Shown: positions 31,345 to 35,738, counted from the first letter of the stretch. The stretch: 64,000 nucleotides of DNA from Picochlorum sp. SENEW3 (GCA_034226945.1 CP120453.1:744001-808000), one strand, 5' to 3'. Numbers and translations: made by a program. Notes: a model not told the origin generated them from the sequence alone.

Positions 31345-32051
31345 TGAGCCTCCATCGCTGTAAATCAGAGTCAGGATCTGGTTTTGCCAATCCTACTCGG
31401 AGATCATTGCAATCCTGGGATGCTGCAAAGACGCGATTCTCGTGAACGATATTGACGCAGTCATATTCATCTGCGAGGCGAAGGCTGAATATCTCACGAT
31501 CCTTTTGTGAGAGGTACAACTCTGACTTGGCAGGTGTGATGTATGCTTCCTCACATCGAGGCTGAGGCTTTTTTGGATAGTACATTTGGATTGTCACTTG
31601 GGCTGAGGATTGTGTTTTGTTGGAAAATTCCAGTTTCCAGGACTTCCAATTTCTAGAATCGCTGAAATCCCTGAGAATGGGGCCATATTTCTTTGAACAG
31701 GTCTTGTTCCTAAACCCAATATACTCTGCACGATAACGCAGCCATTTTTTCACGTGAAACCATGATTTGTACGTATAATGTACTTTTATCCACCAGTAAG
31801 ACGCGTACCTTCGAAATCGAGACACCGAGGCCAAATAGCACAGAGCCTCAGCCTATACACCCCGTTCTTCAACGTTCGAAAGTCCAACTTCTCGGGAGCA
31901 GTCCCGACCCCTACGCACATGAATAAATATCAAATCTTTTCTTCTTTCGACAGGTCATCCGCGGCCACCTCAATACAGTACCTTGTCGTGTCGCCAAAGA
32001 GAGGGTACTACGGACGAGCAGGCATATGAGAACTACGGCAATGTGTAGCAT
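31331..32051 (-). CDS. Secreted protein of unknown function (3 exons), possibly beta-trefoil-like
   Basis: Signal peptide MLHIAVVLICLLVRSTLS; two GT..AG introns give a continuous frame into ORF 31331-31834; ends in QRWRL. Confidence 0.55.
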
Positions 32052-32373
32052 TCGGTGATAGTATTTTGCTCCTCTCCAATGAATGAAATTTTATATAAAG
32101 AATTTCTTTAATATAAAGAAATGCATCCTGTCGGTTCTGTGCCGGAACTAGATCAATAAGAAGTGATTTGGCTCCTCCAGCTGCTGCAAGGCAATGAAGC
32201 CACTCTCTCGTAGTATTCTACTGTCCAACCCCACCCTATATTATTAGGATATTCTACCATGCATAGTTTTACGTCATTCCATCGTTCAAGCGCTTCCAGA
32301 TTGCGCCACCAGGCAGGTCCACATTGTATTATACTGTCGGAAATTCGAAAAGTAACGCTATCTGTGTCGAATG

Positions 32374-32466
32374 AGGAAAAGGTCGCGCGTTCGAGCCGCG
32401 TAGCGGGTGGTCAAACAACTTTACACTCAGCCCGCTTAGCTCAGCTGGAAGAGCGTTTCCTTCCTA
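32374..32466 (+). tRNA. trnR-CCU: Circularly permuted tRNA-Arg(CCU): 3' half 32374-32409, 20-nt spacer, 5' half 32430-32466
   Basis: Reassembled 73-nt cloverleaf: acceptor GCCCGCT/AGCGGGT+G73, D arm GCTC-AGCTGGAA-GAGC (G18 G19 A20), anticodon stem TTTCC/GGAAA with loop TT-CCT-A|A, T arm GCGCG-TTCGAGC-CGCGT. Confidence 0.9.
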
Positions 32467-32478
32467 GATCAGAATTCC

Positions 32479-32483
32479 TTTTT
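32479..32483 (+). terminator. Pol III oligo-T terminator of the permuted tRNA-Arg
   Basis: TTTTT 12 nt after the end of the 5' half. Confidence 0.6.
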
Positions 32484-32757
32484 GCTCTCCTCTTAAGAGG
32501 AAAGAAGCTTCTTCTATGTCCAGAAAACATAGAAGAAGGAGTTGCCAAGGCATCACAGATTTCTCGTCCCATCAATGCTATCCGATGATGGGCTGAATGT
32601 GCGTTCCATCCCTGAAGAGGACAGATTGGGTGGTGCCATCATCTGGATAGTTCATGTATCCATAGAACGCTATAGTAGGATACATTAATCTTTTACTTCA
32701 AGAAACGTAACCAATTCGGATAGCAATACCAAGAGAGGAGTATTCGGCGCACCGTTC

Positions 32758-33158
32758 ATGGTAAACACCACGCTATTCTGTCCCACGTGCGCGAATCTCT
32801 TACAGGGTACGTCGGTTTACAGATTTGGGTGATTACTATTGCAGATGAACTAATACAACGAACGTTTGTTGCAGTTGAAAAGGTACAAGGGCTGCATTAT
32901 CAAAAGTGTTCGTCCTGTCCCTACGTGTTTGAAATCAGCAGCACCATTTCAAAGCAGGTGGCGTTGGAAAGAAAAGAGGTTGACGACGTATTAGGCGGTG
33001 AAGACGCGTGGAAGAACGTCCAGAAGGCATCTGCTGTGTGCGAATCCTGTGGAAACAAGGAAGCTTACTTTAGGGAAATTCAGACAAGGTCTGCAGATGA
33101 GCCAGCAACACTGTTTTTCCGGTGTACAAAGTGCGCCAAAGTTTGGAAAGAGAACTAG
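32758..33158 (+). CDS. RPC11: RNA polymerase III subunit C11 (exons 32758-32806, 32875-33158)
   Basis: LFCPTCANLL, CSSCPY, EVDDVLGGEDAWKNV, TFIIS-like zinc ribbon QTRSADEPATLFFRC..C. Confidence 0.95.
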
Positions 33159-33165
33159 TATACTA

Positions 33166-34200
33166 ATGATGCGTTCGGCTCTGTCATTGCAAAAGGGCTG
33201 TGGTGTTTTCCGTGTCCGAACGAGCAACAAAAAGCAGCATGTGTGCCGCTCGTCTCAGACAGAAACAGCCGGAGATGTCGCTCAGTTGAGGGAGGAGGTG
33301 GCTGCTCGGACGGCAGCCATGGCTAATTTGGAGAAGCAGCTTCTCCATGTAGAAAATCTGAGGGCAGAGGAGTTGAGGACTGCCATATCGAGGTTTGAGG
33401 AACTCGAGGAGGCCCTGCTGATGGCTGAAAAGAGTATTTTGAAGGAAGAAGAATCAGTAGCTCTGCTGACGAAGCAACTGGAGGCGAAAGATAAGGAGAT
33501 TTCTGAAGGATTGAAAAAGCTCGAGGTTGCGATGAAGCAAATGCATGCATTCAAAAAGGAAGCAGAGGATGCTAAAGCTCGGGAAGAGGAGGTCCGTGAT
33601 GCTGCCAAGGCAGAACTGGAGGCTTCTCAGAATCTTGTGGCGAAAGCGTATGCCCTCCTGACGGAATGGAAGGAGGATCAAAAGGTAATTGTGACAACGG
33701 ACAAGGATAACAGCAACAGCAATGGGAGTGTCCTCAAGGAGGATGAGCTGGAGACTGTTCTTGCAGAGCTAGATTTGCTGAGGGGAGAGCTTGAAGCAGA
33801 GTTAGAGACAAATGAGGATGCCATTGCACGAGCCGAGGCAGCCGAGGCTGAACTGGAAGAGATCCGAAAGGGAGCGCTCAAGCCTTCCAAAGCTCTTGAT
33901 CCTGCAGAGATGGAACAAATTGCAAAGAAGCTGGCAGCATCCCAACAGGAGTTGACTGCATCCAAAACAGAGGAGGCTCGCTTGAGAATTCTTGTTGAAA
34001 AGCTGGAAGCTGAAAAGGCAGAGATGGAGCAGCAGAAATTAAGCTTAGAAAGCGTAAATAACAAGGTTTCCATGTCCAAGTATACAAAAGAACTCGAGGA
34101 ACGCAATAGAGAGCTTGTTGGGGATCTCTCAAAGAGCAAAACAGCCTTGGAGCAAGCCAAGAATCTCCTTGTCTCATCCTCTTCGTCCATCTTATCCTAA
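33166..34200 (+). CDS. Coiled-coil protein with plastid transit-like N-terminus
   Basis: ATG 7 nt after the RPC11 stop; MMRSALSLQKGCGVFRVR..VCRSS transit-like segment, then a long heptad-rich region. Confidence 0.7.
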   Translation: MMRSALSLQKGCGVFRVRTSNKKQHVCRSSQTETAGDVAQLREEVAARTAAMANLEKQLLHVENLRAEELRTAISRFEELEEALLMAEKSILKEEESVALLTKQLEAKDKEISEGLKKLEVAMKQMHAFKKEAEDAKAREEEVRDAAKAELEASQNLVAKAYALLTEWKEDQKVIVTTDKDNSNSNGSVLKEDELETVLAELDLLRGELEAELETNEDAIARAEAAEAELEEIRKGALKPSKALDPAEMEQIAKKLAASQQELTASKTEEARLRILVEKLEAEKAEMEQQKLSLESVNNKVSMSKYTKELEERNRELVGDLSKSKTALEQAKNLLVSSSSSILS

Positions 34201-34299
34201 TCTTGTAAATTCACGTATAAAAGAGTTGACACAGTGTTCGACAGGTCTCATGGTAGATTGGCGTCCTCAATGGCAAAAGCAAAAGTAAGCGTTGAAATA

Positions 34300-34396
34300 T
34301 TCTAATCAAGCCCCATGGACCGGACTCGGGCACGACCGCATTGCATGTGCATCGCGGTCGACAGGATTCGAACCTGCGCAGCTTGCGCTACTTGAT
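34300..34396 (-). tRNA. trnS-AGA: Circularly permuted tRNA-Ser(AGA): 3' half 34396-34353, 13-nt spacer, 5' half 34339-34300
   Basis: Reassembled 84-nt class II cloverleaf: acceptor GCGGTCG/CGACCGC+G73, D arm CCC...GGG, anticodon stem CTTGA/TCAAG with loop TT-AGA-A|A, variable arm AGC-GCAA-GCT, T arm GCAGG-TTCGAAT-CCTGT; T4 runs follow at approx. 34284-34275. Confidence 0.92.
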
Positions 34397-34664
34397 CATT
34401 AGATATATGCATTTGGCAAAATATTCACGAATAATAAAATATCGAGTTCCAGGGGCGGACCCATATTCGCCGATATACAGCGTCCGTGATACAATAATAA
34501 CCCACTAGGAATATGCGCCAACGTATAGATATGCTGTCCAAGCATAACGCACACCATACACCAGTATATACATGGTCCCAACACGAATGCGTTCCTTACT
34601 GTCTCCTGTCTGGAGCTTTCTACACAAAGAATTTTGTTCTCAAAAGGATATCTTTACAAATAAT

Positions 34665-35738
34665 TTATTTACTAGTCAATTCTTTCTCCAATTCCTCCAA
34701 CGCATACACCACCTCATTATCCTGCTCAGAGTATCCCTGAAGCCTTGCTATCTTGGCACCCTGTGTCGCAGCCTCAGCAGCACTTTCCAATTCTCCCCCA
34801 GCTTTATACGCCACCGCTAACAAGAGCCATACATCTGGAACAGCATCATTCTCCTCCAAAAGACCCTCCAAAATATCCGCCGCAGTTGCTGTCGAGTCAT
34901 CCAATTCCAACAACAGCTTGGCCGTCTCAAAACGAAATTCATACGATGGCAGCATACGTTCACCCTTCTTCTCATCGCCATTGCCATCTTCATCTTCTTC
35001 TTCTTCATCATTATCATCATCATCCCACCATAACTGCAATGATTCCTTCAACAGCCCCAATGCCTCTTCCTCTCTCCCTTGAATCACCCGCAAACTACAA
35101 AGAGCCTGCAACGGCTCTGGATTCTTACTCGTTCCACTTCCAGCTTCATGTAAAAGAGATTCAACCTCAATATAAAGACGAGACACCTCCTCTTCAGAAT
35201 CATCCTCTGCCTCATCCAGTGCATCATGAATCAAACCCATCAACAGCTCCGCCAGCGAGCACAATGCCGACGTCAGATACTCTTCACTATTCTCATCATC
35301 CATATTCCTCAAAATCCCAACCCCCTGTCGCATCGCAGCCTCTGCCTCCTCCGTCCTCCCACAGGCGTCCAACACCTGTCCCAAATACATGAACTTTTCA
35401 AACCCAGTCATGGGAGCCAAATCACAAGCCTTCTGAAGAACCTTTATCGCCTCATCCTTTCTATCATTCGCAAACTCGGCCAGAAAAGATCCATACCCAT
35501 CCAAAAACTCGACATTCTCGGGCTCCCGGAGCACACACTCCTTGTACAGGGCCTCTGCCTGAGCCAAATCTTCACTCATCAGCGCAATCTCTGCTTGCAT
35601 GAATAATTCCTCACAAGACTTTCTAGTACCATGTTGTTCATTTTTATTCTTTCGTCGCTGCGTTTGACCCTTACTATTGCTCCCATGCTGTTGCTGTGCA
35701 TGGCGATGTTGGTGGTGATACCCCATCGTATTCTCCAC
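34665..35738 (-). CDS. ACL4: TPR protein, assembly chaperone of RPL4 (ACL4-like)
   Basis: TPR helices; GFEKFMYLGQ, ALCSLAEL, EPLQALCSLR, LPSYEFRFETAKLLLEL. Confidence 0.75.
   Translation of the reverse strand: MENTMGYHHQHRHAQQQHGSNSKGQTQRRKNKNEQHGTRKSCEELFMQAEIALMSEDLAQAEALYKECVLREPENVEFLDGYGSFLAEFANDRKDEAIKVLQKACDLAPMTGFEKFMYLGQVLDACGRTEEAEAAMRQGVGILRNMDDENSEEYLTSALCSLAELLMGLIHDALDEAEDDSEEEVSRLYIEVESLLHEAGSGTSKNPEPLQALCSLRVIQGREEEALGLLKESLQLWWDDDDNDEEEEDEDGNGDEKKGERMLPSYEFRFETAKLLLELDDSTATAADILEGLLEENDAVPDVWLLLAVAYKAGGELESAAEAATQGAKIARLQGYSEQDNEVVYALEELEKELTSK

Follow-up and report, generated by a model that had tools for sequence, protein, structure and literature searches.

A probably functional, circularly permuted tRNA-Arg(CCU) gene with a 37/38 break in a Picochlorum-like green alga

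Introduction

Two halves of a tRNA-Arg(CCU) lie on one strand of the DNA of a Picochlorum-like alga in reversed order, with the 3' half first. Do they make up a working gene, and how would one continuous tRNA be obtained from it? The locus (positions 32340 to 32483, plus strand) is part of a 64,000-nucleotide stretch of DNA that we analyzed as a whole and call the window. All positions are counted from the first nucleotide of the window.

Permuted tRNA genes have been known since 2007. Table 1 of a 2014 review holds 34 of them, and the spacers between the halves of known permuted genes range from 1 to 74 nt (PMC3978253). According to the same review, the genes of Ostreococcus, Micromonas, and the Bigelowiella natans nucleomorph are of type II with one exception, and they encode Ser, Leu, Cys, iMet, Asn, and Arg(TCT) tRNAs. 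A preliminary description of the locus, made from the sequence alone, gave Cyanidioschyzon, prasinophytes, a chlorarachniophyte nucleomorph, and the archaeon Thermofilum as the known occurrences. That list was incomplete. It lacked Bathycoccus, for which seven permuted tRNA genes are reported, together with Bathycoccus virus(es) (PMC3673656). It also lacked Auxenochlorella UTEX 250-A, for which the report describes an incomplete tRNAscan-SE set with permuted genes filling the gap, Pro(UGG) being the example (Plant Cell 2025; PMC12636532).

Results

Architecture of the locus

Read in linear order, the 64-kb window appeared to hold no tRNA gene at all. ARAGORN called 0 tRNAs, also when introns were allowed, and 0 Rfam families reached the gathering score. 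The expectation that standard scans would miss the gene was therefore borne out. We then rejoined the halves at the exact 37/38 boundaries; ARAGORN run over all slice combinations was far too permissive. The segments 32374 to 32409 and 32430 to 32466 rejoined into a 73-nt cloverleaf, which ARAGORN called over positions 1 to 73 as tRNA-Arg(cct), the identity given in the preliminary description. As that description had also proposed, all stems pair across the halves. The acceptor stem has 7 bp and starts with a G1:U72 wobble, the D stem has 4 bp, and the anticodon and T stems have 5 bp each.

The two halves are defined by their sequence, by the ARAGORN call on the rejoined halves, and by covariation (see below). 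The 3' half (nt 38 to 73; 32374 to 32409) consists, in order, of A38, GGAAA, AGGTC, the T arm GCGCG/TTCGAGC/CGCGT, AGCGGGT, and G73. The 5' half (nt 1 to 37; 32430 to 32466) contains the acceptor 5' strand, U8, a D arm with G18G19 and A20, the 5' strand of the anticodon stem, U33, CCU, and A37. The D loop reads AGCTGGAA, and the arginine determinant A20 is present in it. The 5' half ends in CCT-A37 and the 3' half opens with A38, so the break is at 37/38 within the anticodon loop; there is no intron. Both halves are on one strand, the 3' half first, with 20 nt between them. This is the known type II layout, and the spacer (32410 to 32429) has no T4 run. On these grounds a split tRNA gene of the Nanoarchaeum type was rejected. 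The spacer would be removed after circularization.

Upstream of the 3' half, by 41 to 47 nt, lies a TATA-like, AT-rich element, TATTATA (32327 to 32333), for which the C. merolae model suggests a promoter role (PMC3978253). The predicted precursor leader (32340 to 32373) includes the segment GAAATTCGAAAAG (32340 to 32352), the outer-helix strand TCTGTGTC (32361 to 32368), the GAA that follows it (32369 to 32371), and a bulge UG (32372 to 32373) directly before the cut at nt 38. The GAA is a possible partner of U32-U33-C34. On the downstream side, the trailer (32467 to 32478) leads to a T5 run (32479 to 32483), a candidate RNA polymerase III terminator; T4+ runs also stand near most of the other permuted loci. 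All these features are on the plus strand. Direct reading of the window confirmed each sequence element listed in the preliminary description, TATTATA and the candidate T5 terminator included.

The surrounding DNA is eukaryotic. The window encodes condensin subunit 2, CBF/Mak21, and ABC1 kinases, is gene-dense, with 53 open frames of at least 180 aa, and is about 44 to 48% G+C. The closest named relatives of its condensin subunit are from Chlorellaceae (Chlorella, Micractinium, Nannochloris, and Auxenochlorella). The protein encoded by the open frame that separates the two tRNA genes of the window (see below) matches an NCBI protein of Picochlorum sp. SENEW3 with 99% identity, and on this homology we take the source to be a Picochlorum-like trebouxiophyte. 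A protein atlas gave only bacterial ABC1 clusters. At a distance of about 290 nt past the tRNA begins a gene for an RPC10/C11-type RNA polymerase III small subunit with a Zn_ribbon_TFIIS domain (32758 to 33158, plus strand). It has a GT..AG intron (32806 to 32873) that is confirmed by an RNA contig, and this adjacency of tRNA and RPC10 recurs in two of the related loci described below, L001 and L002. Public protein models fuse the RPC10-type gene with a downstream coiled-coil open frame (33100 to 34197), which looks like a separate gene.

Two further observations concern the immediate flanks. A contig of the public run X9 stops at 32311 and continues as an A-rich tail, about 60 nt before the tRNA 3' half; position 32311 could be the polyadenylation site of an upstream plus-strand gene. 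Just past the tRNA terminator, an inverted repeat (32507 to 32539) forms a 12- to 13-bp stem with a 7-nt loop. Its matches to miRNA families are at chance level, and it is not conserved in L001.

A second permuted gene in the window

A structural scan of both strands required a T arm followed by the acceptor 3' strand and then, after 2 to 89 nt, the complementary acceptor 5' strand with U8 and a D arm. Two places in the window matched, the Arg locus and a Ser locus, versus 5 matches in total over 30 dinucleotide shuffles. A candidate from a loose scan (17029 to 16996, minus strand) was dropped, being the start of a reading frame and lacking a T arm.

The Ser locus is a permuted tRNA-Ser(AGA) gene (34300 to 34396, minus strand), about 2 kb from the Arg(CCU) gene and on the opposite strand. 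Besides the structural scan, it was detected by an ARAGORN sliding scan of 220-nt windows treated as circles, and it was called again after rejoining. Its 3' half (34396 to 34353) and 5' half (34339 to 34300) are separated by a 13-nt spacer (34352 to 34340), with the break at 37/38 as in the Arg gene. The gene has an intact long variable arm, and its central helix UUAG:CUAA consists of four perfect pairs. After the gene comes the candidate terminator TTTTGCTTTT (34275 to 34284, minus strand).

Could the reversed order be an assembly artefact, a normal tRNA gene mis-joined with its halves swapped? The stretch from 31800 to 34800 is present in public runs of 12 studies, four of which we compared. 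All of these are Logan contigs and not raw reads, which is the one point in favor of an artefact. However, the independent salt-lake run X10 has a 239-nt contig over 32385 to 32617 that bridges the Arg spacer with 0 differences from the window. The related locus L001, on a contig from a different source, has the same order of halves with a different spacer, and three more lineages are alike in this. The Ser gene gives the window a second case of the same architecture. We therefore attach almost no probability to a mis-joined assembly. The Ser gene itself is covered by independent contigs from two runs, and a 333-nt contig of the salt-lake run X10 holds it whole. Over this gene the X9 run, from a differently labelled organism, differs once, in the T loop, where it carries A57 in place of G57. 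The tRNA consensus at position 57 is a purine, which A57 keeps.

Conservation in relatives

An alignment search of metagenome contigs with the neighbouring protein yielded nine loci (L001 to L009). Two independent scans, the structural one and ARAGORN on circular windows, agreed on nine permuted genes in seven of these nine loci. Permuted Arg(CCU) with the same 37/38 break is found in L001, L002, L007, and L008, and permuted Ser(AGA) in L002, L004, L005, L007, and L009. L003 and L006 have kept the neighbouring RPC10 and coiled-coil genes and have no permuted tRNA in the contig DNA; in L005, the neighbouring genes are present and the Arg gene is absent. The synteny of the tRNA genes with these neighbours is not universal. 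Together with the window, 11 permuted genes gave full-length ARAGORN calls when rejoined at 37/38, five as Arg(cct) and six as Ser(aga), and the 37/38 break is common to all of them. The best named matches of a kinase encoded at L008 are from Chlamydomonas, Gonium, Haematococcus, Myrmecia, and Prototheca (44 to 54% identity), and on these protein matches the L008 lineage can be narrowed to green algae.

Searches by DNA pattern were less productive. The exact Arg pattern, with a gap of 2 to 32 allowed, had 0 matches in the metagenome contigs. It missed L001 because the gap was one base short, the discriminator plus spacer of L001 being 33 nt. A looser pattern had 12 matches in viral contigs, none of them permuted: 10 were neighbouring ordinary tRNAs in phage tRNA clusters, and the other two, L016 and L020, were odd tRNA-like pairs in the ordinary order. 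At both of the latter (viral contigs >300 kb, ~250-420), two tRNA-like sequences are adjacent, and ARAGORN calls neither. One of these sequences appears to have additional nucleotides in its anticodon region.

The mature Arg(CCU) sequences share 50 to 59 of 73 nt between lineages; those of the window and L001 are identical. In the five Arg genes, 21 of 21 cloverleaf pairs are standard in every sequence, so that the four helices are 100% paired. Nine pairs change on both sides in the five-gene alignment. For example, the acceptor 5' strand ends in -GCT, -TCG, -CAG, or -CCA, and the 5' strand of the anticodon stem is TTTCC, TAGCC, TGTCC, or TCTCC. The covariation score is 0.492. Shuffled partners averaged 0.186, with none of 500 shuffles reaching 0.492, and slid partners scored at most 0.112, these controls being coarse with only five related sequences. 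As far as sequence comparison can tell, this pair pattern is what a working tRNA shows. The G1:U72 wobble (window positions 32430 and 32408) is present in all five permuted Arg(CCU) genes, while three other acceptor pairs covary.

The six Ser(AGA) genes, that of the window and those of five relatives, likewise differ in sequence without losing the pairing of any acceptor, D, anticodon, variable, or T stem. These stems were counted by script coordinates; when aligned with MAFFT, the six Ser loci had their acceptor strands in the wrong place.

The comparison of the window with L001, the two being 79% identical in the neighbouring protein, outlines the parts of the gene that have been kept. About 50 nt upstream, a CACATT and T/A-rich block is conserved and aligns with the TATTATA region. 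The 33 nt before nt 38 differ at only two aligned positions, so the leader is near-identical, and both halves are conserved. The spacers (20 nt in the window, 32 nt in L001) can barely be aligned. After the spacer, conservation returns in the 5' half, in the first 8 nt of the trailer, which are identical, and in the T5-GC terminator, where the similarity ends. This is the footprint expected of one transcription unit from which the spacer is discarded. Across the other Arg genes the spacers are 23 nt (L002), 46 nt (L007), and 7 nt (L008), and the spacers are unrelated in sequence. A T4 run occurs in the spacer of none of the 11 permuted loci; past the 5' half, 10 of them have a T4+ run no more than 16 nt away. 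Spacers without T4 and trailers with T4 fit a single transcript.

One element of the leader stands apart. Within GAAATTCGAAAAG lies a TTCGA motif (32345 to 32349). Five of the 11 permuted loci have TTCGA at a distance of 12 to 30 nt before nt 38 (the window Arg gene and the Ser genes of L004, L005, L007, and L009). One-base variants are present in L001 and L008 at -30, the window's own distance. The motif could be a start-site or promoter-proximal element.

These data bear on whether the locus is a non-functional relic, scrambled by a local rearrangement or by duplication and deletion and now out of use, the decoding of AGG being left to another tRNA. A relic would agree with the imperfect central helix at the Arg junction (see below) and with the finding that no RNA contig lies over the Arg locus in the four public contig runs. 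However, in five genes from at least four lineages with distinct sequences, no cloverleaf pair has been lost despite nine double-sided changes, while their spacers diverge freely. The window and L001 also have the leader, trailer, and terminator in common. A dead gene would not be expected to show this pattern. Five covarying permuted genes with unrelated spacers and the salt-lake contig across the spacer make misassembly and a dead relic unlikely, and we regard a relic as very improbable. The locus has the structure of a permuted tRNA gene and has been conserved under structural constraint.

A different possibility is that the conserved object is a tRNA-like RNA module that acts outside translation, such as a YrlA/Y RNA-like domain, or a processing or insulator element beside the RNA polymerase III subunit gene. 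At relaxed thresholds, the Rfam scan returned one suggestive match, to YrlA (RF02553; E 0.0032). The match covers model positions 23 to 85 of 114, which are the tRNA-like module, and the YrlA model has the T arm, acceptor, and D arm in the same swapped order as the Arg(CCU) locus. The RPC10/C11-type gene about 290 nt downstream, an adjacency repeated in L001 and L002, also speaks for such a module. However, the 24.6 bits of the YrlA match are far under the gathering score of 69, so the family threshold was not reached, and the match is limited to the T arm, acceptor, and D arm, which any permuted tRNA would share. In addition, the anticodon arm is complete and conserved in the five Arg genes, with its stem, a 7-nt loop with U33 and CCU, and A37/A38; a mimic needs none of these. 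A module outside translation thus seems to us even less probable than a relic, and we return to the reading as a tRNA gene.

Junction and predicted maturation

The preliminary description had the leader pairing both with the trailer GATCAGA (32467 to 32473) and, through its GAA, with UUC of the anticodon loop, in a relaxed bulge-helix-bulge at 37/38. The first of these pairings was recovered. RNAcofold of the window Arg flanks gave the anticodon stem, an internal loop with both cut sites, and a leader-trailer helix of 7 bp with one bulged U. The second pairing, GAA:UUC, is possible but absent from the minimum-energy fold, which favors another local pairing over the central helix. With that helix drawn in, the junction consists of the anticodon stem, a 3-nt bulge (UG|A38), a central helix with 3 of 4 pairs, and the 7-bp leader-trailer helix with its one bulge. 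If formed, the motif is relaxed, as claimed. Folded whole and without constraint, the Arg precursor was not clearly better than shuffles (z = -1.65), and such unconstrained folds did not recover the cloverleaf for Arg.

The central helix varies among the permuted loci. It has 4 of 4 pairs in the L002 Arg and window Ser genes; 3 of 4 in the Arg genes of the window, L001, and L007 and in four Ser genes; 2 of 4 in the L007 Ser gene; and 1 of 4 in L008. Some contacts are more constant. In 10 of the 11 loci, nt 32 has its pairing partner in the leader, 3 nt ahead of the cut, with a covarying C32:G in the L002 Ser gene, and nt 33 is likewise paired in 10 of 11. The yeast endonuclease uses an anticodon-intron pair of the kind formed by nt 32 and the leader (PMC3978253). 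In the same review, the green-algal type II genes are given the relaxed hBH form, and the eukaryotic endonuclease is considered to recognize, besides a relaxed hBH, the mature domain and the anticodon-intron pair. From the modeled folds, we rate the bulge-helix-bulge motif at the Arg junction as probably present but relaxed, of the hBH type.

By analogy with Cyanidioschyzon merolae, maturation may proceed as follows. RNA polymerase III would start below the AT-rich element and stop at the T5 run, producing one linear transcript of leader, 3' half, spacer, 5' half, and trailer. The acceptor, T, D, and anticodon stems would then form across the halves, and the leader and trailer would pair beside the anticodon stem into the relaxed hBH-type bulge-helix-bulge. 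The tRNA splicing endonuclease would cut after A37 and before A38, and an RNA ligase would join 37 to 38 into a circular RNA. In the last steps, cleavage by RNase P and RNase Z at G1 and G73 would release the 20-nt spacer, and the 3' end would receive its CCA. Transcription, circularization, end processing, and charging of the Arg(CCU) tRNA are thus what we infer from the C. merolae case, in which circular intermediates and aminoacylation were demonstrated for permuted tRNAs (PMC3978253).

This scheme could in principle end earlier, with a nicked, two-piece tRNA that is cut and never ligated at 37/38, its halves being held together by the stems. Such tRNAs exist in cells (PMC10159003), and the ligation at 37/38 in our scheme is itself taken over by analogy. 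Nevertheless, a tRNA broken in its anticodon loop, directly beside the anticodon, could not decode normally, and the homologous gene type of C. merolae matures via a ligated circle and is aminoacylated (PMC3978253). We see only a very small chance of a permanently nicked product, smaller than that of a module outside translation, and we favor the ligated tRNA. In the four public runs, taken as contigs, no RNA contig covers the Arg locus, a back-joint, or a CCA-tailed end, and these runs are uninformative on expression. An RNA match of 26 nt (32430 to 32455) was discarded as not from this gene; it continues into an ordinary foreign tRNA.

Discussion

Our results indicate that positions 32374 to 32466 of the window (plus strand) are, very probably, a functional circularly permuted nuclear tRNA-Arg(CCU) gene of type II (37/38) in a Picochlorum-like alga (Trebouxiophyceae, Chlorellales). 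Permuted tRNA genes as a kind are already known, and the Arg(CCU) locus leaves their mechanism unchanged. What seems unrecorded is the occurrence of permuted tRNA genes in a second genus of Chlorellales and, for green algae, the combination of anticodon and junction, Arg(CCU) with 37/38.

The lineage was a surprise to the preliminary description, which knew of no permuted tRNA genes in it. Our full-text literature searches gave no report of permuted tRNA genes for Picochlorum, and the word "permuted" is absent from the Picochlorum genome papers with tRNAscan-SE annotation that we consulted. At the level of the order, the surprise did not last: permuted genes were already reported in 2025 for Auxenochlorella, also of Chlorellales, which makes the lineage less unexpected. 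That alga is of a different genus, and the anticodon illustrated for it is Pro(UGG) instead of Arg(CCU) (PMC12636532). The further statement that no permuted Arg(CCU) is known from green algae agrees with Table 1 of the 2014 review, which has no 37/38-permuted or green-algal Arg(CCU), its nearest Arg gene being the Arg(TCT) of O. tauri (PMC3978253). The later Bathycoccus and Auxenochlorella sets may hold one.

Among the known systems, the type II genes of Ostreococcus, Micromonas, and B. natans are the most similar in design. They share with the Arg(CCU) gene the order of the halves, the 37/38 junction, an AT-rich upstream region, a T stretch, and probably the relaxed hBH, and the 20-nt Arg spacer is inside the known range. 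Ser(AGA) of type II, the second gene of the window, is listed for M. pusilla and B. natans in Table 1 of the review (PMC3978253). The host of our gene is different, a Picochlorum-like trebouxiophyte and not a prasinophyte. The permuted Arg(CCT) gene of C. merolae (Soma et al. 2007, as given in PMC3978253) has the same anticodon, a TATA-like upstream element, and a downstream T stretch. However, it is of type IV, broken at 59/60 in the T loop, with a 23-nt spacer and a 27-nt intron at 14/15, whereas the gene described here is broken at 37/38 and has no intron. The Arg(CCU) permutations of the two algae likely arose independently. Thermofilum pendens (Chan, Cozen, and Lowe 2011; PMC3218864) has in common with our locus a circular permutation that is resolved by the splicing endonuclease. 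It differs in being archaeal and, in Table 1 of the review, in its 59/60 breaks, its iMet and Tyr genes, its spacers of 1 to 7 nt, and its extra introns (PMC3978253).

How old is the arrangement? The contigs that bear on this have 43 to 47% and 58 to 63% G+C, and their neighbouring proteins are down to about 34% identical. We put forward, tentatively and as a possibility that we do not consider the probable one, that permuted Arg(CCU) and Ser(AGA) genes flanking the RPC10-type and coiled-coil pair form an arrangement of old date that has been inherited stably and that several green-algal lineages, deeply diverged from one another, have in common. If this is true, permutation in Chlorellales-like algae would be ancient and widespread and not sporadic, a large share of the "missing" Picochlorum tRNA set would be encoded back to front, and a common origin with the permuted Ser genes of prasinophytes would become testable. 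Whatever its age, the comparative set (five Arg genes and six Ser genes) combines spacers that vary freely with leaders that are conserved and stems that covary, and it points to the precursor parts that are under selection.

Species of Picochlorum serve as production strains; they grow fast, tolerate salt and heat, and have compact genomes. To our knowledge, tRNAscan-SE cannot see permuted tRNA genes. For Picochlorum SENEW3, 24 nuclear tRNAs were counted with this program (Table 1 of PMC6141220), and so small a number fits the idea that many genes were missed. Since annotation in the genome papers that we consulted relied on a tool that is blind to permuted genes, their tRNA lists probably lack the tRNA that decodes AGG as well as one or more serine tRNAs. 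Gaps of this kind distort codon-usage analyses and the design of transgenes in these algae.
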